From positions 92,950-113,257 of the IMG/VR virus record IMGVR_UViG_3300029582_000367: a DNA stretch of 20,308 nt; one strand, written 5' to 3'. Under the pieces are notes generated by a model that saw only the letters and a list, made by a program, of their open reading frames with translations, was not told the DNA's origin and searched no databases. A program made the position numbers and the translations under genes. Origin of the DNA: a virus (taxonomy: Duplodnaviria > Heunggongvirae > Uroviricota > Caudoviricetes). Below, one piece after another: positions 7,245-18,383 of the stretch (positions are counted from its first letter, which is position 1; every line of letters starts with the position of its first letter).

Positions 7245-9299
7245 TTAGTTGCCTCCCGCGCCGATGATGGAATCCACCATCTTACAAGAACCTTTTCCTC
7301 GGTTCAGTAGTTCTTTTGCGTCTTTTTTTGCTTCTTCATATTCCGCCGGATACGCCATCATGAGCGTCATATACCTATTCCAGCCAGACTGTTCTGTGCC
7401 AAGAAAATCGCCGGCGCCGCGAATGCGAAGGTCTGCCTCTGCGATTTCGAAGCCGTTGTTAGTCTGAACCATGGCGTTCAGGCGCTCCATGGCCGCCGGT
7501 GTGGGCGACGGACCTGCATCCAGCACGCAGTAGGACTGCACATTACTGCGTCCTACACGCCCCCGAAGCTGATGCAGGCTGGAAAGTCCAAACCTGTCCG
7601 CATTGACAATGACCATCATGGTAGCCGTAGGAACATTTACGCCGACCTCCACGACCGTTGTGCTGACAAGCACATCTACTTTACCGTTCTTGAAACGAGA
7701 CAGGATGTTGTCTGCCTCATCTTTCGGCGTCTTACCGGTAATCGTTTCGATGCGGACTCCATACGGCTCCAGTACGGAACGGTATTCCTCGCTGACTTCT
7801 TCAACGGACTGGACACCCTCCAGCTTCTCGCTCTTATCAATGAGAGGACAGACGACATAGGTCTGATAGCCTTTACGCTTCTGCAGCAGGATGAAACGGA
7901 AGATTTTCTCTTTGCTCGTTGCGATACCTGTAATCACAGGCAGCCGTCCGTTCGGCATCGTCTTAATGGTATGGAGCTGTACGGTGTCTCCGTACAAGAC
8001 CTGCGCCAGACTGCGAGGAATAGGCGTAGCCGACATAGTGATGGCGTGTACGCCTCCAGAGGCTTTTTCCACCAGTGCAGCACGCTGGTCAACTCCGAAC
8101 TTGTGCTCCTCATCCGTCACCGTAAGTGCGAGATTCTTGTACTCCACACTTTCTCCGATGATGGACTGGGTTCCGACGATGAGGCTCGCATCTCCGTCCT
8201 TGATGGCGGCGAGGACTTTTTTCTTCTCGCTGGCTTTTAGGTCACTGCCGAGCCACGCGACGTTCACGCCGAACGGTGCGGCCAACGCAGAGAGTTCCTC
8301 ATAATGCTGACGTGCCAGCACAAGCGTAGGCGCCATCACCGCTGCCTGATACCCGTTCTCGGCCATGACCATCATCATACAGAAAGCCACAATACTCTTT
8401 CCACAGCCCACGTCGCCTTGGACAAGCGCATTGATGCGATGTCCGTCTGCAGCAAACTGTATCATACTCTCTATGGCATCCACTTGGTCTTGCGTAAGAG
8501 AGTAGGGAAGTGAAGCCTTTATTTTCTCATACCAACCATGCGTCCGTATTGAGAACTGGCTGCCCTTGGATATCTTTCTCGCGGCCCATTCATTCGCCAT
8601 TGCAAAGTAGACGAGGTCTTCCTGCAGCAGTCGGGCTTGTCCCTCTTTAATATCCTGTTCAGAAGTAGGGAAGTGCAGCATTTTGAGGGAAGTCCAGAAG
8701 CTCTGTAATCCCTTTTTATCAAGGTAATCAATAGGAAGCGTTTCAATCATCCCGATAGTTCGGTCAGACGCTTCTTGAATTTTTTCTCTCAGGTAGGCAT
8801 CGCTCATCCCGCCGATTTGCGCGTAGATGGGGCGTATGCCCGGTGCTTGTCCGTATGACGGCTCGAATATCTCAGGGGCTGTCATGGTGAAGTTATTATA
8901 TTTAGTATTGTATCCGACCTTGCCGGCTACATATACAGTTTCTCCAACACAACTGGACACCTTCCGGAACAGGTAGTTCTGCCGGAACCACGTGATGACC
9001 AGCTTTTGACCACTTTGCGGCATCGTGCAGTAGGCGATGAGCATGGGCGTTTTGGAAGAAGTCTGAACGTATGAGCCCTTGTAGCGGAGTTCCTGTCCGA
9101 AGGACTTCACCTCGTCCACCGTGACAAGACAGGCCTGCTCAGCGCCATCTATTAAATAAGGAGCAAGCTGTCTGTAGTCCTTGTAGCTTTTCGGTATATA
9201 CCGCAGCAGGTCTTCGGCAGAACAGATGCCCTTTTTCTCAAATTGCTTTGCTTTCTGTGGCGTGATGCCCAGTGTTGATAGTTTGATAGTAATAATCAT
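7245..9299 (-). CDS. recG: ATP-dependent DNA helicase RecG, ~684 aa (start approximate)
   Basis: LVQGDVGCGKS Walker A, MAPTLVLARQH, DEEHKFGVDQR, MSATPIPRSL, TTVVEVGVNVP, RFGLSSLHQLRGRVGR, GFEIAEADLRIRGAGDFLGTEQSG; GGAGGTG RBS near 9300. Confidence 0.95.
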   Translation of the reverse strand: MIITIKLSTLGITPQKAKQFEKKGICSAEDLLRYIPKSYKDYRQLAPYLIDGAEQACLVTVDEVKSFGQELRYKGSYVQTSSKTPMLIAYCTMPQSGQKLVITWFRQNYLFRKVSSCVGETVYVAGKVGYNTKYNNFTMTAPEIFEPSYGQAPGIRPIYAQIGGMSDAYLREKIQEASDRTIGMIETLPIDYLDKKGLQSFWTSLKMLHFPTSEQDIKEGQARLLQEDLVYFAMANEWAARKISKGSQFSIRTHGWYEKIKASLPYSLTQDQVDAIESMIQFAADGHRINALVQGDVGCGKSIVAFCMMMVMAENGYQAAVMAPTLVLARQHYEELSALAAPFGVNVAWLGSDLKASEKKKVLAAIKDGDASLIVGTQSIIGESVEYKNLALTVTDEEHKFGVDQRAALVEKASGGVHAITMSATPIPRSLAQVLYGDTVQLHTIKTMPNGRLPVITGIATSKEKIFRFILLQKRKGYQTYVVCPLIDKSEKLEGVQSVEEVSEEYRSVLEPYGVRIETITGKTPKDEADNILSRFKNGKVDVLVSTTVVEVGVNVPTATMMVIVNADRFGLSSLHQLRGRVGRSNVQSYCVLDAGPSPTPAAMERLNAMVQTNNGFEIAEADLRIRGAGDFLGTEQSGWNRYMTLMMAYPAEYEEAKKDAKELLNRGKGSCKMVDSIIGAGGN

Positions 9300-9516
9300 C
9301 ACCTCCGTGGGTGAACACTTGTGTTTAGTTGGAATAGTCCAGAATATCCCGACCGAGAAAAAATCTACAATAAAGCCGCCCTCTTTTATTTGGATGTCTA
9401 AAAGGAGCGGGAATTCATTTGTTCTGACCAACATACACAGACTCCACGTGGAGAAAACGTTTTTCTGCGGTGGGAATACGTGGGATTTCCCCCCCCACTT
9501 CGTGCCTTCATGCACC

Positions 9517-9546
9517 ATTATAAACACGGATATAAAATTTTGTCAA
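9517..9546 (-). promoter_or_regulatory. sigma70/sigmaA-type promoter for recG
   Basis: TTGACA-N18-TATAAT on the - strand. Confidence 0.6.
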
Positions 9547-9708: not shown

Positions 9709-9737
9709 TTGACATTTTTCTACACTCGTGTTAGTAT
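9709..9737 (+). promoter_or_regulatory. sigma70/sigmaA-type promoter for the tRNA/ncRNA cluster
   Basis: TTGACA-N17-TAGTAT with extended -10 TG; same -10 hexamer as the repeated cassettes. Confidence 0.65.
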
Positions 9738-9926
9738 AAGACCGTGGACAGGGCAAGGAAATCGAAGCCGCAAAAGCTCGTTTTTAGTTGACAATTTTCC
9801 CTTTCGGGGAAGTGTAAACGTCAAGATTCCTGAACCCTCTCCGGTTTTCTTCTTTCTTTTATTAAACTCGTAAGCGCAACATAAAACCAGCCTCCTGAGG
9901 GAAGTGCGCGGAGGCTGCTTTGATAC

Positions 9927-9980
9927 CGTGCCGGCTCCGGTAGGGGAGCTTTGAATGGTTCGAATCCGTTCGGCACGCCA
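9927..9980 (+). ncRNA. minimal tRNA-like RNA lacking one arm
   Basis: Acceptor CGTGCCG/CGGCACG then CCA; T-arm AATGG-TTCGAAT-CCGTT; only one other hairpin, GCTCC-GGTAGG-GGAGC. Confidence 0.6.
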
Positions 9981-10134
9981 CCTGTTTTCACCGCTGTTGT
10001 CTTCACCTTCATCTTTTCCAACGTGCAGCGGACATGGAAACCTCTTTCTTCATCATGCAGTGCTGTTTGACCCCACGGTGCTGCAACACGGAGGGGCTGC
10101 GGCCATCTTAGTAGCCCCTCCGTCACCCCAAAAT

Positions 10135-10224
10135 GGCGATGTAGCACAAATGGTAGTGCATCCTGCCCAAGAGAGCTCCTTCGAGGGCCGTGGGATTATA
10201 TCGGTTCGAGTCCGGTCGTTGCCC
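10135..10224 (+). ncRNA. tRNA-like RNA with an 18-nt insertion in the anticodon loop
   Basis: Acceptor GGCGATG/CGTTGCC, D arm GCAC/GTGC, T arm ATCGG-TTCGAGT-CCGGT; anticodon stem TCCTG/TGGGA encloses 25 nt. Confidence 0.65.
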
Positions 10225-10321
10225 TTACCATCCTCAACCGAGGATGTGCCTTAACGGGGAGAATTGGGGCTTGGGCGACGTTGGTAAGGCTGCCGCCCAG
10301 CCTTAATTCTTCAAACCACAT

Positions 10322-10399
10322 GATGGCGTAGCATAATGGTAATGCCGTGCCTCTCTCACAGGCAACGTTATGCTGGTTCGACCCCAGCCGCTATCACCA
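10322..10399 (+). tRNA. atypical tRNA with anticodon CTC (Glu), possibly a pseudo-tRNA
   Basis: Acceptor GATGGCG/CGCTATC then ACCA; D arm GCAT/ATGC; TGCCT-CTCTCAC-AGGCA; T arm GCTGG-TTCGACC-CCAGC; extra nucleotides flank the anticodon stem. Confidence 0.65.
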
Positions 10400-10523
10400 A
10401 CCGGCGTTCCACCCACCCCGCCGGTATTCATGTCTCTCCGTGTTTCTCTTTTGAGAGAAACAGGCGGCCTCCGTGCAGGAGTGATTGACCTGCGAGGAGC
10501 GGAGGCCGCCATCGACCCAAAAT

Positions 10524-10599
10524 GCTGGTGTAGCTCAATCGGCAGAGCGGTTCATTCGTAACGAACAGGTTGTGGGTTCGATTCCCGCCGTCAGCTCCA
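10524..10599 (+). tRNA. tRNA-Thr(CGT)
   Basis: 76-nt cloverleaf, anticodon loop TTCGTAA, encoded CCA. Confidence 0.92.
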
Positions 10600-10730
10600 A
10601 TCCACACTTTTTCTCCTTTGCTTTTTTCATTTTTATCCCCCCTGTACGAAGCCCTCACAGACAACGCAGTTGAAAATTAAATTTCAGCCGCACTGCCTGT
10701 GGGGGCTTCAACCCCATCTATTGCCCATAT

Positions 10731-10806
10731 GCTGCTGTAGCTCAGTAGGTAGAGCAGCGGATTTGTAACCCGCAGGTCGGGAGTTCGAGCCTCCCCAGCA
10801 GCTCCA
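10731..10806 (+). tRNA. tRNA-Thr(TGT)
   Basis: 76-nt cloverleaf, anticodon loop TTTGTAA, encoded CCA. Confidence 0.92.
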
Positions 10807-10847
10807 TTTTCAATTTAACTCTCTACGGAGTCCATCTTATCATATAT

Positions 10848-10923
10848 GCGGATGTCGTCTAATTGGTGAGGCACCGGCCCTCCAAGCCGGTCATTGCGGG
10901 TTCGAGTCCCGTCATCCGCTCCA
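10848..10923 (+). tRNA. tRNA-Gly(TCC)
   Basis: GCGGATG/CATCCGC acceptor, anticodon loop CCTCCAA (C33 instead of U33), U73 and CCA. Confidence 0.88.
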
Positions 10924-10959
10924 AGGACGCCGTCGAGTGGCGTCCTTTCTTTATACCTG

Positions 10960-11525
10960 CTCACTGTCCGTTCATTGATTCGTTGCGGAAATCGGCGTCT
11001 CATGGACATCCTGTTCGCCGCAAGGCCTCGCTCTTTCGCTTGAGGCTACTGCGCCGAACCGCCTCGGACAGTATCGGCGAAATGCGAAAGTCTCCTGAAG
11101 CGTGAGAAGCGAACCGCCTGCGCCTATATGTAGGCGGTGGCGTGATAAGGGAGATACTCCGCATTGTTTCAGCCGCCGTGAGCGGGCATCAATGACAGGC
11201 AGAGGCTCCCGCCTACCGTGGTGCTAATTCACAGGCTGCTGTGATTGCCACGCTAAGATTCCAGAGGATTTAAGATTCCAGAGTTACGGTTCACTTTGAG
11301 CTGTGCTTATGGCATCTCTCGTACTTTGGAATCCCACTCCGTGAGGGGTGGGAGGAGTCAACTATGGGCACCTGCATTGCCCATGGGTACTGGGAAGCTG
11401 GGCAAATCTTAGGCACAGAAGCTCGTAGTCAAAGCCGACCCGCCGGACGCGGTGCGTCAGCTTTCAAATTGGGCTTTGTGGGGTCCAGTGTTCTTGCGGT
11501 TGGGTTGCCGCAGGGCCGGCAAAGA
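10960..11525 (+). ncRNA. candidate large multi-domain structured ncRNA
   Basis: No credible ORF; nested long-range helices at 10963-70/11065-72, 11075-86/11160-75 and 11301-09/11410-18; GNRA-capped hairpins. Confidence 0.5.
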
Positions 11526-11537
11526 ATAATTATCGGA

Positions 11538-11597
11538 TACGGCAAGGCGAGTCGGAATTAACGCCTGTAGAGACGAAATCCGTCGGTGAAACAGGAA
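11538..11597 (+). ncRNA. omegaRNA-like scaffold core, copy A, in the tnpB 5' leader
   Basis: TACGG...CGGAATTAACGCCTGTAGAGA...CGTCGGTGAAACAGGAA is homologous to 12754-12815 and 14443-14504. Confidence 0.65.
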
Positions 11598-11636
11598 TTT
11601 GGGGAACGCCAAAAAAATTGAAAGGACAAAAGAATT

Positions 11637-12695
11637 ATGGCGACGACATTTCAGGCTTTTAAGTATCGCATCTATCCCACAGATGAACAAATCGAGGTCA
11701 TCGAACGCACCTTCAAGTGCTGCCGCTTCGTGTGGAATCACTTTTTGGAGCGTACCAGCAAAATCTACGACCGCCGGCAGGAAAGTATGTCAAAGTTCGA
11801 CTGCATGAAGGTCCTGACCGAGATGCGTGAGCGCTGGCCGTGGCTGGAAGATTGCGGGTGTTCCGCAGAGCGATATGCTATCGTGAATCTGTTCGAGGCG
11901 CGTAAGGCCTTCTTCCGCCGTATAAAGGCAGGGGAGAAGCCCGGTTATCCCAAGTTCAAAAGTGCCCGTTGTCCGTCTCAGAGCTTTACTACCGCCGGAA
12001 CCATCTATGTGACGGACGAGTGCATCCAAGTCCCTTTCGGCAGTCAGTATCAGAAAATCAATAAGGTCAAGCGCGGCAGTGGCCGTCCCGCTGTGGGCAT
12101 CCCCCGCGAGGTCACGATATCCCGTTCCTCTACCGGTAAATACTGGGCATCCGTCTGTTGCATGGTGGAGCGCGAGGAACTGCCTGTCGCCGAGGGCGAA
12201 GTCGGTATCAGCCTCGGTCTGAAGGAGCTGGCTATCGACAGCAACGGCGTACACTATGAGAACCCGAAGCATCTGAGCAAGTCCGCAAAGCGTCTTGCTC
12301 GTGAGCAGCGTCGTCTGTCCCGCAAGCAGAAGGGTTCTGCCAACTATGAGAAGAACCGTAAGCTGGTGGCTGAAATCCATGAGCATATTGCCAACCAGCG
12401 GCGTGACTATCGACATAAAATCAGCCGCGAACTCGTCAACAGCAACCAGCTCATCGCTGTTGAAAAGGTGGCTGTCAAGTCTCTGGTTGAGGGCAACGAG
12501 CAGGCCAAGAGCATCCTCGATGCCGGCTGGTCTGAGCTGACCAGCATGATTAAGTATAAGGCTGAGTGGGCTGGACGCATTCTGGTGGACGTAGACACAG
12601 CCACCGTAGCGCCGGAAGCCAAGCATGACGAGGCGCTGGCACAGGTCGTGCTGTCCGAAGGTCAGCGCATGGCTTCCGAGCAGAAGCCTGCCTAA
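11637..12695 (+). CDS. tnpB: TnpB-family RNA-guided protein, predicted nuclease-dead (TldR- or dCas12f-like)
   Basis: AFKYRIYPT, CRFVWNHFL, GYPKFKS, ENPKHL, QRRLSRKQKGSAN and ILDAGW are IS605 TnpB hallmarks; RuvC-I reads VGISLG (S192 where D is expected); E276 kept; CxxC zinc finger absent; RuvC-III degenerate. Confidence 0.9.
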   Translation: MATTFQAFKYRIYPTDEQIEVIERTFKCCRFVWNHFLERTSKIYDRRQESMSKFDCMKVLTEMRERWPWLEDCGCSAERYAIVNLFEARKAFFRRIKAGEKPGYPKFKSARCPSQSFTTAGTIYVTDECIQVPFGSQYQKINKVKRGSGRPAVGIPREVTISRSSTGKYWASVCCMVEREELPVAEGEVGISLGLKELAIDSNGVHYENPKHLSKSAKRLAREQRRLSRKQKGSANYEKNRKLVAEIHEHIANQRRDYRHKISRELVNSNQLIAVEKVAVKSLVEGNEQAKSILDAGWSELTSMIKYKAEWAGRILVDVDTATVAPEAKHDEALAQVVLSEGQRMASEQKPA

Positions 12696-12705
12696 AGCCG
12701 AGCGA

Positions 12706-12734
12706 GAAAAGTGTGCAATGATTGCACACTTTTC
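12706..12734. repeat. perfect inverted repeat with 14-bp arms, between the tnpB stop and the scaffold
   Basis: GAAAAGTGTGCAAT-G-ATTGCACACTTTTC. Confidence 0.85.
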
Positions 12735-12753
12735 CAAGAAAACAATAATACGA

Positions 12754-12884
12754 GTACGGATGGTATGACCGGAATTTACGCCTGTGGAGATGCATGGTCG
12801 TCGTGGAAGCAGGAATACTCTGTAAGCTGGTTTTCATGTGAGAGATGATGCCGGCACCTTAGGGAACTGAATATGCCTGTGGCG
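12754..12884 (+). ncRNA. omegaRNA/tracrRNA-like scaffold, copy B, fused to CRISPR array 1
   Basis: ACCGGAATTTACGCCTGTGGAGA...GAAGCAGGAA resembles the tnpB 3' end/omegaRNA; highly similar over ~130 nt to 14443-14575. Confidence 0.75.
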
Positions 12885-13237
12885 GGTGTATGAGACCTGA
12901 AACGACAGGGTTGTATACCCAAATCGTGGAACATTTGTCTCAACCGACAGGTGTATGATACCCTGAAACGACAGGGTTGTATACCTGTGGGGCCGCTGTC
13001 GCTGACCGGTACGCCGGTATATAGGGCCCTGAAATAACAGGGTTGTATACCCCGGATGGGACGCGAGTAAGCCTCTATGTGGTGTATAAGGCCCTGAACT
13101 AACAGGGGTGTATACCAGAATATCCCGTCCTCATCGACCGACACAAGGCGTATAAGCCCCCGAAATAGCAGGGTTGTATACCAATGGCTCGTTCGGAATT
13201 TGGCATATACGGTTCTAAAATAACAGGGGTGTATACC
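12885..13237 (+). CRISPR. CRISPR array 1: 6 repeats, 5 spacers (strand inferred from tnpB)
   Basis: Repeats close to GGTGTATAAGGCCCTGAAATAACAGGGTTGTATACC at 12885-12919, 12950-12985, 13016-13051, 13081-13116, 13147-13182 and 13202-13237; unique spacers of 30, 30, 29, 30 and 19 nt. Confidence 0.9.
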
Positions 13238-13292
13238 GTTTGCAAATGAGTCTACATAACTATTGAAATCAAAAAGAAAGGAATATAAAAAC

Positions 13293-13871
13293 ATGGAACC
13301 TTCTATCAACCGAACCCTTACCGTCAGTGTCGTCAGCTATGGCGTCGTATCCGTCGTCAACGGAGTCATCAACGTTGACAATCAGGCTCCCATCGAGTTT
13401 CCCGCCGTGCTGGACGAGGCATCCGCTGCCAAGCTGCTGAAGAGCAGATACGGCGGCAAGCTGTTCCCCGTGGATGCGAATATCGTCGTGTCTTCCATCC
13501 GGCACGAGAAGTGGAAGTTCTCTATGGACCTGAGCCAGTTCGTCGCTACCGCTGCCCGCAGCCGCGTGGACGGCACCGCATCCGAGGCCGACGATGCCCC
13601 CGCAGAGGACATCCCCGCCACCGAGCCTGCTGCTCCTGCGCCTGAGACGGCACCCGCTGCTTCTCCTGCTATCCCCATGCCTTTGGTCTCTGAACCTGAG
13701 GAGGATTTTGCGCCTGTAGCTCCCGAAGCGCCTGCTCCCGCCGGTGGTTTCGCTCCTGAGACCCCCGTTTCTGCGCCCGCTGCTCCCGCAAAGGAAGTCC
13801 CCTATGGCGGCAACTTCGATTTTCCCTCTGGCTTCGGTGGCGACTTCGGTTCCGGCTTCTTCGGCGGTTAA
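13293..13871 (+). CDS. phi29 p6-like dsDNA-binding protein with a Pro/Ala/acidic tail
   Basis: GAAAGGA RBS before ATG 13293; the first ~90 aa follow the p6 pattern (R-x-LT...VNGVINV...F...L...A...LKSRYGG...IVVSS...FSMDLSQFVATA); similarity recalled, not searched. Confidence 0.65.
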   Translation: MEPSINRTLTVSVVSYGVVSVVNGVINVDNQAPIEFPAVLDEASAAKLLKSRYGGKLFPVDANIVVSSIRHEKWKFSMDLSQFVATAARSRVDGTASEADDAPAEDIPATEPAAPAPETAPAASPAIPMPLVSEPEEDFAPVAPEAPAPAGGFAPETPVSAPAAPAKEVPYGGNFDFPSGFGGDFGSGFFGG

Positions 13872-13877
13872 TAACCG

Positions 13878-14045
13878 ATGGATGTCGTGAACGTTGGACG
13901 TGGATGTCCTGATTGCATCAATAAGGAAACTCCGACGAATAAAGAACCCTGTAAGAGCTGTTCCCGCTGGAATAGGTGGGAACCTGACGAAAAGTGTAAG
14001 GAAAAGATGGCGGTCAAAGCCGCCCGTGAAAGGACAAAGAAATGA
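13878..14045 (+). CDS. small Cys-rich protein, 55 aa (not in the ORF track)
   Basis: MDVVNVGRGCPDCINKETPTNKEPCKSCSRWNRWEP...; CxxC-x11-CxxC; ATGA overlap with the next gene. Confidence 0.7.
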   Translation: MDVVNVGRGCPDCINKETPTNKEPCKSCSRWNRWEPDEKCKEKMAVKAARERTKK

Positions 14046-14359
14046 GTAATACCAAGGCATCTGAAAAGCCCGTCGTCGTATTCATCAGTAATGACAACGA
14101 TACCGTCATTGGTGTGATGGTCATTAAGAACGACGATGAAAACCTGCAGAACAATCTCGAAATCATTGAGAAAAACTGGGTTGCTGCTCGTAACGAGTTG
14201 CTCCAGCGGGCTCGTGAGGACGATAGCATTGAAGCAGACGAGGACGAGCTTCACATCGCATTCATCGCACACGAGTTGGAGATGTTCGACGAGCCCTATG
14301 AGACTATCGACATCTCCGGCGTTTACTCCGTCTCCAATGGGAATGTGGACCGCATCTAA
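14042..14359 (+). CDS. acidic hypothetical protein, 105 aa
   Basis: GAAAGGA RBS; hairpin downstream. Confidence 0.75.
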   Translation: MSNTKASEKPVVVFISNDNDTVIGVMVIKNDDENLQNNLEIIEKNWVAARNELLQRAREDDSIEADEDELHIAFIAHELEMFDEPYETIDISGVYSVSNGNVDRI

Positions 14360-14382
14360 GTTGGTCTTGGAGACACCCACAC

Positions 14383-14419
14383 AGCGGCGCAGGCCCTACT
14401 CCGGCGCCTGCGCCGCTTT
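14383..14419 (+). terminator. GC-rich hairpin, probable terminator or processing site
   Basis: AGCGGCGCAGGC/GCCTGCGCCGCT with a short T tail. Confidence 0.55.
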
Positions 14420-14442
14420 CCACTAAAAATCTTAAAAGTTAG

Positions 14443-14575
14443 GTACGGACGGTATAACCGGAATTAACGCCTGTGGAGATGCTTGGTCGTCGTGGAAGCA
14501 GGAAAGACTCTGTTAGCTGGTTATCATGTGAGAGGTGATACCAGCACCTTTAGGGAACTGAATATGCCTGTGTTG
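14443..14575 (+). ncRNA. omegaRNA/tracrRNA-like scaffold, copy C, fused to mini-array 2
   Basis: Direct repeat of 12754-12884 with substitutions that preserve the stem (GCTGGTTATCAT/GTGATACCAGC). Confidence 0.75.
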
Positions 14576-14678
14576 GGTGTATGGGGCCCTGAAATAACAG
14601 GGTTGTGTACCCGCACTTACCGTGATATCGAGCATTGTGTTAGGTGTATGGGGCCCTGAAATAACAGGGTTGTGTACC
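14576..14678 (+). CRISPR. CRISPR mini-array 2: 2 identical repeats, 1 spacer
   Basis: GGTGTATGGGGCCCTGAAATAACAGGGTTGTGTACC at 14576-14611 and 14643-14678; 31-nt spacer. Confidence 0.85.
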
Positions 14679-14744: not shown

Positions 14745-15266
14745 ATGGCCTCAAAAAAAATATATAGTTCCCCTGAACTCTATGAGGACAAGTTGGTGCG
14801 CGTAATGGCGCGGCTTGGTATCGAAGAAGGCGACTACAACTACGACTGGAGTCGTCAGGAGTGTTGGGTTGAGTTCAGGTACAAGGGTGAGATTTACCGC
14901 TTCTCCCATAGCGTGAAGAACGCCCAAGAGCACGGCATCTCCCTGCAGTACGGCTCCGATGCCTTCGCACAGGTCGTGCTCTCCTTGGAAGACCTCGCCC
15001 GCATGGTCGAACGTGGTATCTACGACCTGTCCACATGGGTGGCCGGCATGAAAGCCCTGCCGGAGCGCTCCAAGCCTTTAGATGCCTGCTTTATTGCTCT
15101 CGGTTTCGTAGAGCCTCCCACATCCAAGGAAGAAATCACACTCCACTACCGCCGGTTGGCGAAGGTGTATCACCCTGATGCCGGCGGCGATAGCTCCTCA
15201 TTTGATGCGCTGTCTAACAACTATGCGAAATGTATGAAGATTTTCGAGGAGGTTGCCGACAAATAA
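14745..15266 (+). CDS. protein with a C-terminal DnaJ-type J domain
   Basis: AAGGAGG RBS before ATG 14745; LGF...EEI...YRRLAKVYHPDAGG (HPD motif). Confidence 0.85.
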   Translation: MASKKIYSSPELYEDKLVRVMARLGIEEGDYNYDWSRQECWVEFRYKGEIYRFSHSVKNAQEHGISLQYGSDAFAQVVLSLEDLARMVERGIYDLSTWVAGMKALPERSKPLDACFIALGFVEPPTSKEEITLHYRRLAKVYHPDAGGDSSSFDALSNNYAKCMKIFEEVADK

Positions 15267-15775
15267 TGTATATGTCTCAGAAAGAGTTCAACGCTATGAT
15301 GAAGAAAAATCCCCGCCTCCGTGTTCACGGTGCAAACAGCAACACCCGCGAACATCGCTCCAAAGCGAATAAGGCGGCAAAATATAGAAACGTAAAGGTC
15401 TACGAGTACGCCGATGGGCTGGCCTTTTTCGGTAAGCCCCGCAACAATGGTGAAATCCCCATCGCTGTCTATGACAGCAAGAAGGAATACCATCGCTGGA
15501 AAGAGCTTCAGATTTTGGAGCGCGGCGGTCATATCCACGACCTCCGCCGGCAGGTGCCTTTGACCATCATTACCGAGTTTGAGTATCGTGGTCAGAAGGT
15601 CTCCGGTATTACATACAAGGCCGACGCAGTCTATGTACGTGATGGAAAGCGTGTGGTCGAGGATGTAAAGCCCTTCGATACCACAACGCAGACGTATCGG
15701 ACCACCAAGGATTTCAACCTCAAGTGGAAGTTGCTGAAGGCAAAATATCCTACTTGGTCCTTTGAAATCTATTGA
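15266..15775 (+). CDS. DUF1064-like phage PD-(D/E)xK nuclease
   Basis: KYRN, YDSKKEY, LRRQV, ITYKADAVY, VVEDVK, F-x-LK-x-KLL motifs; start overlaps the upstream stop. Confidence 0.8.
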   Translation: MYMSQKEFNAMMKKNPRLRVHGANSNTREHRSKANKAAKYRNVKVYEYADGLAFFGKPRNNGEIPIAVYDSKKEYHRWKELQILERGGHIHDLRRQVPLTIITEFEYRGQKVSGITYKADAVYVRDGKRVVEDVKPFDTTTQTYRTTKDFNLKWKLLKAKYPTWSFEIY

Positions 15776-15851
15776 AAGGCTATTTAAGATTTGATGTGGG
15801 GAACCCACAAAAGGGTTAATATCCCTCCGCAAATTTGTTCGCTCCAAGAAC

Positions 15852-15953: not shown

Positions 15954-16748
15954 TTGGAAAGCACAAGCAAAAAACAAGTAAAATGGGGGATTTTCAAGAC
16001 TGCACTCTTTACGTTCCTGTTCGTCGCAGTATCCGTTTTCTATTTTCACTCCAGTAACGTGACACTCGCACAGGCCGAAGAACGCTCGAACCACGAATCA
16101 CCTCCTGCAGCAGCGGTTGCCGCCCAGATGGACGACACCAAGCTGTCGGAAGAAGCGCAGCAAGATGTTTTGGTGCTGAAAGAAGGAATCCTCGACCCGC
16201 TTTCCGACATCACGGAAGCAGAGAACTCCGAAGATGACCCCAACGCCGTTGAAGAAGTACAGGAGGTTGTTCCTGCTGTCTGTTCCTACTGCGGCTCTGA
16301 GAACCACAGTTCTTCAATCTGTGCAAAGAAGTCTATTGCCAATGGCGCCTATGGGCGCTGGGTGATTCCGTCTGTTGGCTGTAATGTAGCGACCTACTCG
16401 TGTAACTGGGATGCAGACCAATCCTATGTTCAGGAAATTACTGACAGTTCCGACAGTGCAGCTTTTTTGACTTGCGGCGGCGTTGGTGTTCTTGCAGACC
16501 ACAATAACCAAGGTTTCTGGGGACTTTCCAATGTTTCTGTTGGCACGAAAGCCTACATGGACTTTGGTGATGGCGCAACTTACTACGAGTGCTATCAGGT
16601 TGAATACGGACACAATACCGGCGAAAAGATGCTCGATGGAAATGGAAACATAATGAGCTACAGCAACTATTCTTCCGGCACTGTGATTTGTTACACCTGC
16701 CTTGACCACTGGACCAACATTTACATCACTTACTGGACGCCGGTATAA
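15954..16748 (+). CDS. membrane-anchored zinc-knuckle + sortase-fold protein, paralog 1
   Basis: N-terminal hydrophobic helix, acidic linker, CSYCGSENHSSSIC, GRWVIPSVG, ADHN, VICYTC. Confidence 0.75.
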   Translation: MESTSKKQVKWGIFKTALFTFLFVAVSVFYFHSSNVTLAQAEERSNHESPPAAAVAAQMDDTKLSEEAQQDVLVLKEGILDPLSDITEAENSEDDPNAVEEVQEVVPAVCSYCGSENHSSSICAKKSIANGAYGRWVIPSVGCNVATYSCNWDADQSYVQEITDSSDSAAFLTCGGVGVLADHNNQGFWGLSNVSVGTKAYMDFGDGATYYECYQVEYGHNTGEKMLDGNGNIMSYSNYSSGTVICYTCLDHWTNIYITYWTPV

Positions 16749-16792
16749 GCGCCAGACACCCACTCTCTACTCCTCTTAGAAAGGACAAAACC

Positions 16793-17593
16793 ATGAAAAC
16801 GAAATTCAAAATCCCTCAGTGGGCACTCTTCACCGTTATCATTCTGGCCTTTATCGGTGGTCTCTTTGCCATCTCCATGCTGCCTGCTTTCGCATCACGT
16901 GAAAGCTCTCCGCCTTTGGCAGTAGCAGAAGCCGCGCAGAACGAGGAAAAGGACGCAAATTCTGATGCTCAGACTCCCGAAGCAGACAAGACGACAGATG
17001 AACAGGGAAGTGCTGAAGCCCCCGTAGAGGCCGAGTCTCAGGCAGACGACGCCGTCGTTGTCGAAGAAACTCCCGCCGAAGAGCCTGTTCAGGAAACCCC
17101 GACTACCTGTTCCTACTGCGGCAGTGCAGAACACACCAGAGACTACTGCGCCGTTCGTGCCGTTGACAATGGTGCCGTTGGCCGGCTCCGGATTCCCTCT
17201 GTCGGTGTTGACGTGGCTGTCTACGACGTTACTTGGTACTCTCTGCAGCATACCACCGAGAGTGACAACTACACGCAGGCCGTTACAGATGCATGGGACA
17301 GCGCAGCACAAATCGTCTATCTCGGCCAGACCGTTATTGGCGACCATAATAATCAGGGCTTCTCCGCCATCAACAACTGCTCCGAAGGCACCTACGCTTA
17401 CATCGACATGGGCGACTCTGTCCTGACCTATGTTTGCACCGGCATCCAGCATGGTCGTAACCCCGGTGGCTATCTCACCGGTGCCGATGGCGATAGCATC
17501 TATACCTCTTACTTCAATCCCAACGGTCTGACGCTGTATACCTGTCTCGACCACAACTTCAATGTTGCCCTCGTGACATTCCAGCCTGCTTAA
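16793..17593 (+). CDS. membrane-anchored zinc-knuckle + sortase-fold protein, paralog 2
   Basis: Transmembrane helix, CSYCGSAEHTRDYC, GRLRIPSVGVD, GDHN, LTLYTC. Confidence 0.8.
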   Translation: MKTKFKIPQWALFTVIILAFIGGLFAISMLPAFASRESSPPLAVAEAAQNEEKDANSDAQTPEADKTTDEQGSAEAPVEAESQADDAVVVEETPAEEPVQETPTTCSYCGSAEHTRDYCAVRAVDNGAVGRLRIPSVGVDVAVYDVTWYSLQHTTESDNYTQAVTDAWDSAAQIVYLGQTVIGDHNNQGFSAINNCSEGTYAYIDMGDSVLTYVCTGIQHGRNPGGYLTGADGDSIYTSYFNPNGLTLYTCLDHNFNVALVTFQPA

Positions 17594-17609
17594 AGGAGGT
17601 GCAGCTTTA

Positions 17610-18383
17610 ATGAAAACAAAGAAAATTTCCCGCCGCGCTGTTACGCTGGCTGCCTTTTTGCTGGTAAGCGCATCATCTTTACATATGGCTTGTGCAGAGG
17701 CTTCGGTGCCGTTCGATTACTTTACTGATGACCTCTCTGTGTCCGCTGACGCCGTTGCGAAGGAAGATAAATACCTGCCTCCTGAGTGGTTTACAAAAGG
17801 AACTGCCGTAAGTGGAGTGGACTCAGACACGCCCACGGAGGAGATTCCTACCCCTGCGGGCGAACCCTCTGTGGCGACCCCCGTGCCTGAGCCCGCACCG
17901 GAAACCGCAGCAGTCTGCAGCTATTGCGGCAGCGCAGGGCACTCGCAGAATAGGTGTTCCGTTTACGCTGTCGAACAGCGAGGTGCCGTTGGGCGTTGGT
18001 CTATCCCTTCTATTGGAATAGATGTCGCTTGCTTCACCTATGTGCTTGGAAGCGATTCTTTCGAGTACGGACAGGCAATTTGTGACGCTGCCGATAGTGC
18101 TGGCTACAGTGCGTATGGGAGCCAGTATCTCATTGCAGACCACAACTATCAGGGCTTTTCTGCCATAGCCAACTGCGCGGTTGGTGCGGTGGGATATATG
18201 GATTACGGAAACAGTCGAACAGAATATGTTTGTACTGGGGTGGAGTATGGGCACAATGAAGGCACGGAACTGACTGATAATGACGGAAACGATGTTGCGT
18301 ACAACAACAGTGGAGGAATTACCCTTTACACCTGTTACAACGGTTGGCAAAACGTCGTTATCGTTTACTTTACTCCGACTTAA
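17610..18383 (+). CDS. secreted zinc-knuckle + sortase-fold protein, paralog 3
   Basis: Signal peptide, CSYCGSAGHSQNRC, GRWSIPSIGID, ADHN, ITLYTC. Confidence 0.8.
   Translation: MKTKKISRRAVTLAAFLLVSASSLHMACAEASVPFDYFTDDLSVSADAVAKEDKYLPPEWFTKGTAVSGVDSDTPTEEIPTPAGEPSVATPVPEPAPETAAVCSYCGSAGHSQNRCSVYAVEQRGAVGRWSIPSIGIDVACFTYVLGSDSFEYGQAICDAADSAGYSAYGSQYLIADHNYQGFSAIANCAVGAVGYMDYGNSRTEYVCTGVEYGHNEGTELTDNDGNDVAYNNSGGITLYTCYNGWQNVVIVYFTPT

Follow-up and report, generated by a model that had tools for sequence, protein, structure and literature searches.

A CRISPR-like system apparently derived from a predicted nuclease-dead TnpB, with fused scaffold-array cassettes on a putative conjugative element

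The window analysed here is a stretch of 20,308 nucleotides (nt) of the virus record IMGVR_UViG_3300029582_000367 (positions 92,950 to 113,257) and sits on contig G000, which is 113 kb long. Its central gene (11637..12695, + strand) encodes a 352-aa derivative of TnpB with the Pfam domains HTH_OrfB_IS605 and OrfB_IS605. Downstream lies a 131-nt scaffold (scaffold 1, 12754..12884, +) resembling a trans-activating CRISPR RNA (tracrRNA), which runs straight into a CRISPR array (array 1, 12885..13237, +). A second scaffold (14443..14575, +), about 90% identical to the first, leads into array 2 (14576..14678, +), which has two repeats and one 31-nt spacer (14612-14642) whose target was not found. 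The original prediction, made from the DNA letters alone, had described this same arrangement: a 352-aa TnpB, a scaffold of ~130 nt merging into six repeats, and a second unit at 14443-14678 with a different spacer. It had also noted the absence of tnpA, cas1 and cas2, and none of these families was found among the 12 window proteins scanned. We read the locus as a small CRISPR-like system, derived from a TnpB lacking the first catalytic residue and the zinc finger, that would silence rival integrative islands without cutting them, and give this reading a probability of about 0.68.

Array 1 consists of six repeats, the first of 35 nt and the others of 36 nt, and five spacers, all on the + strand: spacer 1 (12920-12949, 30 nt), spacer 2 (12986-13015, 30 nt), spacer 3 (13052-13080, 29 nt), spacer 4 (13117-13146, 30 nt) and spacer 5 (13183-13201), an old and shared spacer shortened to 19 nt. 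This 36/30 repeat/spacer geometry is reminiscent of type II and VI arrays. The final set collected from the window and its relatives comprises 137 usable spacers in 111 lineages, with a mode of 30 nt (107 distinct units at an intermediate stage of collection). Spacers 3-5 form the common trailer of four arrays that have four different leader-side sets, and another trailer is common to six arrays. A shared spacer is last in 22 of 35 arrays and first in 14, short spacers occupy the last position 15 times and the first five times, and the most diverged repeat is the last one. New 30-nt spacers are found mostly at the scaffold end. With regular repeats, unique spacers, polarised gain and protospacers with a flanking motif, these arrays look like adaptive CRISPR arrays.

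The association of gene and array is stable. Homologs had been expected to keep the scaffold and array, and 40 of the 43 loci do so 3' of the tnpB derivative; two more end inside the scaffold and one has no downstream DNA. In seven of the 40 the array comes after an insertion of about 1.8 kb, which in record G001 holds an IscB gene. No scaffold and array follow the gene in any of 28 loci of other TnpB homologs. Furthermore, all seven long records carry 5-10 scaffold-array cassettes each. On G000, three further units, two intact TnpBs and one IscB lie beyond the window.

Alignment of the 352-aa protein shows S192 in place of the RuvC-I Asp, with E276 kept and D331 opposite the RuvC-III Asp. The protein has lost the C4 zinc finger, and in the DRDxN motif around D331 the R and N are missing. 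The RuvC-I position is Ser or Cys in every member of the clade, and this lesion, the loss of the zinc finger and the open frame are fixed in 43/43 loci. Between the two clades, the nonsynonymous rate (dN) is 0.08 and the synonymous rate (dS) 1.1-1.2, and dN/dS of about 0.07 indicates purifying selection. The protein is a TnpB by fold and domains, but one without the intact D-E-D triad and C4 zinc finger, and it is predicted to have no nuclease activity. The claim of a nuclease-dead TnpB thus stands as far as the S192 lesion and the deleted zinc finger go; a single RuvC acid out of three is replaced, and the loss of cutting is a prediction for that reason. Nor does the locus have the single flank-derived guide of a mobile TnpB element, as its context is fixed in the 43 loci and arrays replace the right end.

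A structure model of the protein (pLDDT 83) matched ISDra2 TnpB best, with a template modelling (TM) score of 0.82, ahead of LaTranC, Cas12f and Cas12m. Identity in the structural alignments was 30-34% to ISDra2 TnpB versus 19% to LaTranC. In a quick IQ-TREE phylogeny of 76 rows, made without bootstrap, the three dead rows form one clade (approximate likelihood ratio test, SH-aLRT, 100) nested within a group of intact TnpBs (SH-aLRT 99) that includes the TnpB of the element's own insertion sequence. The proposed phylogeny thus gave a separate clade within intact TnpBs, in a tree with no TldR, TranC or Cas12 rows. This agrees with the suggestion of an independent intermediate between TnpB and Cas12, although that category has already been published as TranC. 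The dead protein is the sole TnpB in five of seven long records. Searches for a wider dead family gave only P0003 (88%), the chimeric P0004, the fragment P0112 (64%) and short fragments. P0004 joins an N-terminal half from an intact TnpB to a C-terminal half from the dead protein, by recombination or as an assembly artefact, and L017 has a likewise chimeric TnpB.

The first 62 nt of the scaffold show homology to the intact TnpBs' omegaRNA, and the remainder is an interrupted anti-repeat. In scaffold 1 the omegaRNA stem and pseudoknot loop (12757-12771, +) are followed by the omegaRNA core, and the anti-repeat segments (12817-12823, 12858-12864 and 12871-12877, +) flank an inserted hairpin. The anti-repeat, in three segments of 7-8 bp, gives 22-26 predicted pairs with the repeat, and the last 5 nt of the repeat complement the loop of the scaffold's first stem. 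Over 41 aligned units, 96% of the alignment cells are paired versus about 40% in slid controls, and nearly all sequence changes in the pairing are one-sided. Scaffold 2 folds with its first repeat at a z of -2.8. Predicted scaffold-repeat dimers have a mean of 22 intermolecular pairs at -19.3 kcal/mol, compared with 10 pairs at -10.6 kcal/mol when the repeats are shuffled; in energy, 42 of 49 units fall below all 40 shuffles. The repeat type is shifted together with a 2-nt deletion in the scaffold in 48 of 49 units; linked inheritance contributes to this. Furthermore, the loop and the 3' end covary over seven RNA types (12 of 5040 permutations were equally good, with one end read one base off). 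From this covariation, the repeat is taken to stand in for the 3' strand of the omegaRNA, like the RNA splitting described for TranC. A scaffold made of an omegaRNA 5' half and an anti-repeat that pairs with the repeat bears out, as far as sequence can, the idea that the omegaRNA was kept as an in-cis tracrRNA. No CRISPR or omegaRNA family was found in Rfam at E up to 1.

Other omegaRNA-type units occur without an array. In the window, a mini-omegaRNA with a 4-bp loop-to-end pairing lies in the 5' leader of the dead tnpB (11538..11610, +), and its would-be guide is the ribosome-binding region of that gene; autoregulation of the dead tnpB is possible. This unit is present in 10 of 43 loci, all of the window's clade, and is absent from the 87-88% clade. 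Hybrid or array-less omegaRNAs (L068:9014-9165; L073 near 17443; G001:C1:77071-77197; G000:C1:61606-61740) link the scaffold 5' half either to the 3' half of the insertion element or to other stems with a single guide, and look like intermediate forms. Intact TnpB insertion elements without a transposase are located at G000:C1:31640-33060 and 37870-39280 and also in L051, L054 and L061. Compared with G001, where the site is empty, one of them is flanked by a 9-bp direct duplication, an unusual trait in the IS605 type. Several cassettes begin a few bases past a tRNA-Ser gene (G001:C1:37812 and 108720; G004:C1:38091 and 108421), so that tRNA 3' processing could free their 5' end.

The carrier had been proposed to be a mobile element, and its gene content agrees. 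Among the 149 of 191 called open reading frames of G001 that were scanned, we found VirD4, a VirB4-type ATPase, ParA, ParB, RepL, a topoisomerase, RecD2, adhesins and a serine recombinase; none of the frames scanned belonged to a capsid, terminase, portal or cas family. Relatives of the carrier are up to 170-192 kb long, two of them with direct terminal repeats. A phage was rejected as the carrier despite the viral classification of the record. As type IV secretion system, partition and RepL-type replication genes occur here without virion families, we read the carrier as a conjugative plasmid or integrative conjugative element of 180-190 kb, filed under viruses. Cas1 and Cas2 were detected in none of five near-complete records, in searches that detected the positive controls, and no complete cas locus was found there that would explain the arrays. 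Among GTDB genomes and contigs the degenerate repeat pattern had 0 exact matches and VirD4 gave nothing, and none of the plasmid records matched the window. The host is presumably a clostridial gut bacterium, judging from VirD4 neighbours at 33-36%. Three possible RNA runs yielded scattered short contigs only, which are evidence neither for nor against expression.

Spacer matches point to integrative islands. Island L101 (MT835962.1) comprises a divergent regulator, a leader, an HTH_17 excisionase gene (xis) and a tyrosine integrase gene. Island L234, on record G007, is a relative of L101 with a 55% identical regulator; it lies beside a prophage and is cut after xis. L101 ends at what we take to be rpsI's 3' end. 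One match led to each fragment, and the remaining matches are independent of it. The 137 spacers gave 14 matches on the two fragments versus 0 in each of 20 shuffles, all of them in the leader or xis, within about 310 and 400 bp. They fall on both strands, which argues that the target is DNA. A further spacer matches the island integrase gene over 17 nt. Spacer 5 of the window matches the first mini-omegaRNA in the xis leader of L234 at 19/19 positions, with a G directly 5'. The translation of spacer 3 is identical at 9/9 residues to residues 27-35 of P0379, an integrase that is an 84% relative of the one targeted in the islands; this target was seen as a peptide only, and none of the spacers in 5 x 108 shuffles gave more than seven matches. 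Spacer u100 matches the integrase family as a peptide (8/9). Island matches thus comprise 11 of 111 lineages at the DNA level (leader, xis and integrase) and 2 of 111 at the peptide level.

A G is located directly 5' (-1) of the match at 10 of 11 sites (p about 6e-6), and an A or T at -5 in 10 of 11, whereas no shared motif was seen 3' of the matches. This suggests the 5' G as the target-adjacent motif (TAM). In the short spacers u5 and u62, which have been kept for long, the end adjoining the 5' G is preserved, whereas other shortened spacers lost their 5' end. This agrees with the 12-bp duplex that TnpB reads (PMC10442227; this and the papers cited below are drawn on in part). The 5' position of the motif also bears on who reads the arrays. 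Intact co-resident TnpBs or a Cas effector of the host could do so, with the dead protein as a regulator or passenger. Two intact TnpBs (52-53% identical) are indeed present on G000 and one in G006, and the hybrid RNA in L068 joins the scaffold 5' half to the 3' half of the insertion element; the 36/30 geometry noted above also speaks for this. On the other hand, the five of seven records that have no other TnpB still keep many cassettes with fresh spacers, and the RNA loop of the intact TnpB pairs over 5 bp with its own end but only 2 bp with the repeat end. The lack of exact matches to the repeat pattern in GTDB genomes and a motif that lies 5' and not 3' of the match argue against it as well, and we consider this the least probable of the explanations discussed here.

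Several other matches and searches were set aside or came out empty. A 25/30 match of spacer u66 to an ABC-transporter gene was treated as chance, as were four of the five non-family matches of window spacer 5, which represent one homologous site in an unrelated phage group without any other spacer match. Self-regulation by the spacers was rejected, since 5'-anchored matches to three elements did not clearly exceed those of shuffles (49 versus 17-42 at 11 nt, 14 versus 1-14 at 12 nt). The other spacer scans returned only arrays or nothing, and array BLAST searches gave no convincing matches. No further islands were found in viral contigs or additional records, and G007 had no match to the L101 integrase. 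The translations of spacers u2/u45, u49/u115, u48/u54 and u65 resemble what we presume to be motifs of relaxases, rolling-circle Rep proteins, RhuM-family proteins and a P-type ATPase.

The leaders of both islands hold complete mini-omegaRNAs of 82-83 nt with their own compensated pseudoknot pairs, one or two per xis-int leader (L234:2790-3030, - strand; L101:12543-12625), with an A-run and a strong hairpin after them. No TnpB turned up in the 28 kb of G007. Three spacer lineages, including window spacer 5, match these RNAs, which are possible decoys or sensors for TnpB. A homolog (25-29%) of the islands' divergent regulator is encoded in 7/7 elements, for example at G001:C1:100680-101408 and G000:C1:53816-54487. 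The mini-omegaRNAs, the missing TnpB and the shared regulator would all suit a helper-satellite circuit, in which the system tunes or licenses island excision and the leader RNAs act as sensors of the protein. What favours conflict instead is that many spacers are independent and newly gained and match both strands, some of them in coding regions; mismatches on the seed side likewise suit conflict better than a fixed circuit, and we regard such a circuit as very unlikely. A more speculative proposal, which we hold tentatively and think rather doubtful, is an RNA-level arms race at the birth of a CRISPR system, with self-copying cassettes and the island mini-omegaRNAs as decoys or sensors, the first RNA-based anti-TnpBs.

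The silencing of rival islands without cutting could work as follows. Each cassette joins an omegaRNA 5' half and interrupted anti-repeat to a 36/30 array. The anti-repeat is predicted to pair with the first repeat in cis through a short loop and with later repeats in trans. The last 5 nt of the repeat would close the omegaRNA pseudoknot, thereby placing the spacer where the guide of TnpB sits. Host RNases would mature the RNA, and the protein would bind DNA targets of either strand that have a G immediately 5'. Binding at the xis-int leader and genes would block transcription and hence excision of the islands, which might otherwise exploit or compete with the element. A host Cas1-Cas2, working in trans, would insert new spacers at the end of the array next to the scaffold. 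Alternatively, the dead TnpB may be only a targeting module, with a partner on the element or residual RuvC activity damaging or removing the target. A RecG-like helicase gene (7245-9527) and a DUF1064 gene (15266-15775) flank the locus, and the retention of E276 and D331 would allow for some activity. This is nevertheless unlikely: the first RuvC residue and the zinc finger are lost throughout the clade, the dispersed cassettes have no accompanying partner gene, and the clustering of DNA-level matches in the leader and xis is what would be expected of a roadblock.

A number of observations weigh against the silencing of islands by this system. For about 98 of 111 lineages, among them window spacers 1, 2, 4 and 6, no target on an island was identified, so that islands may be one of several classes of target. 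Spacer u76 instead matches sister elements, in a promoter-like region and with 2-6 mismatches. Both target loci were first located via a spacer or scaffold match, no relaxase was seen in either island fragment, and several target matches are mismatched at positions 1-5. One array family varies at the second spacer and not at the first. Two of the three RuvC acids are retained, as noted above. As for the RNA, within the family only two pairs have two-sided changes, which is not above shuffles, and the free repeat folds strongly on itself (-16.8 kcal/mol). Owing to this hairpin the net gain of trans pairing is small (-5.2 versus -4.1 for shuffles, not significant), and trans pairing is therefore probably dependent on the protein.

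The remaining features of the window surround the locus. Upstream of tnpB, the region 9709-10947 holds a strong promoter (9709-9737) followed by a cluster of 4-5 tRNA genes, with a terminator-like hairpin at 10923-10947. The region 11090-11361 has an IS605-type right-end hairpin (11329-11361) and no gene; the contig holds this hairpin in two further places. The contig of a relative lacks 165 nt at this point, so that the region is probably a small polymorphic insertion. Downstream, 15800-15824 is a remnant of the right end of an intact TnpB element, and many relatives have a third scaffold and array unit at this site. The region 15954-18383 encodes three paralogs in tandem, which are secreted or membrane proteins with a CxxC motif and, at the C-terminus, an LYTC-like motif; the one paralog scanned had no match in Pfam.

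Taken together, the data suggest a recent and independent transition from TnpB to CRISPR. The same replicon keeps an intact insertion element, array-less omegaRNAs, hybrids and fused tracr-arrays, and such intermediate RNA forms make it possible to test how the tracrRNA and repeats originate and by what route a TnpB locus draws on a foreign Cas1-Cas2. Unlike most candidate type V groups, the system comes with identified natural targets and a predicted TAM of one base. The findings also point to gut conjugative elements that police integrative islands by silencing. If binding proves true, a 352-aa protein with a minimal TAM and a natural single-guide form would be a very compact chassis for CRISPR interference or editing.

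Among known systems, the closest in construction are the TranCs, published transposon-CRISPR intermediates (bioRxiv 10.64898/2026.03.27.714800, 10.1101/2025.09.28.678669, PMC13639567). Both have a TnpB-sized protein, a right-end RNA split into tracrRNA and CRISPR RNA (crRNA), a mobile-element setting and short arrays with repeats of 32-38 nt, without cas accessory genes of their own. In the computed RNA, as in TranC, an omegaRNA 5' half and anti-repeat are complemented by a repeat that supplies the pseudoknot strand, and the array lies beside the gene without an adaptation module. However, the characterised TranCs are active nucleases, while here RuvC-I and the zinc finger are lost, a separate scaffold is fused to each array and one replicon holds 5-10 dispersed cassettes. 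The comparison covered LaTranC, which matched weakly (19% structural-alignment identity). The candidate Cas12s V-U6 to V-U45 and standalone omegaRNAs (PMC10691335) are likewise cases in which TnpB and an array became associated independently; the array lies downstream of the gene, and in some of them the catalytic site is altered. In the portions of that paper drawn on, neither fused scaffold-array cassettes nor these targets are described; its sequence tables could list the clade. Titles and abstracts in the literature described no dead TnpB with fused scaffold-array cassettes and no omegaRNA decoys.

In its proposed function the system resembles Cas12m (V-M), whose RuvC triad departs from the canonical form, and which does not cleave DNA, is enriched on plasmids and silences mobile elements by binding (PMC10442227, PMC11656645); the target positions and the matches on both strands are compatible with this mode. 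In contrast, Cas12m carries a REC2 insertion, its solved chains are 516-604 residues long (TM 0.57-0.65), and the text drawn on from PMC10442227 mentions no tracrRNA for its crRNA, whereas the present protein has 352 aa, a TnpB architecture and a fused scaffold. TldRs are also domesticated TnpBs without a transposase, with an omegaRNA-type scaffold and predicted RNA-guided repression (PMC10705468). They were mined by at least two changes in the RuvC Asp-Glu-Asp (DED) residues and are paired with an adjacent guide RNA whose promoter target is conserved. In the present system there is one DED change plus loss of the zinc finger, and the 111 spacer lineages, in renewable arrays apparently directed against foreign elements, show no enrichment of 5'-anchored self-matches over shuffles. 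Type IV-A systems on conjugative plasmids similarly have no nuclease and no adaptation genes, use host Cas1-Cas2 in trans and repress the transcription of rival elements (PMC11656645), as is proposed here, but they are Class 1 multi-subunit complexes with DinG, an unrelated machinery. The system would thus function in the manner of Cas12m or type IV-A on a TranC-like construction, without the defining features of Cas12m or TldR. It is best read as an independently evolved, predicted nuclease-dead TranC/type V-like system, and as a variant rather than a new category, since both TranC intermediates and the cleavage-free Cas12m and IV-A are already published. Beyond the original prediction, the analysis adds the conjugative carrier, the 5-10 cassettes per element and the identification of rival integrative islands as targets.

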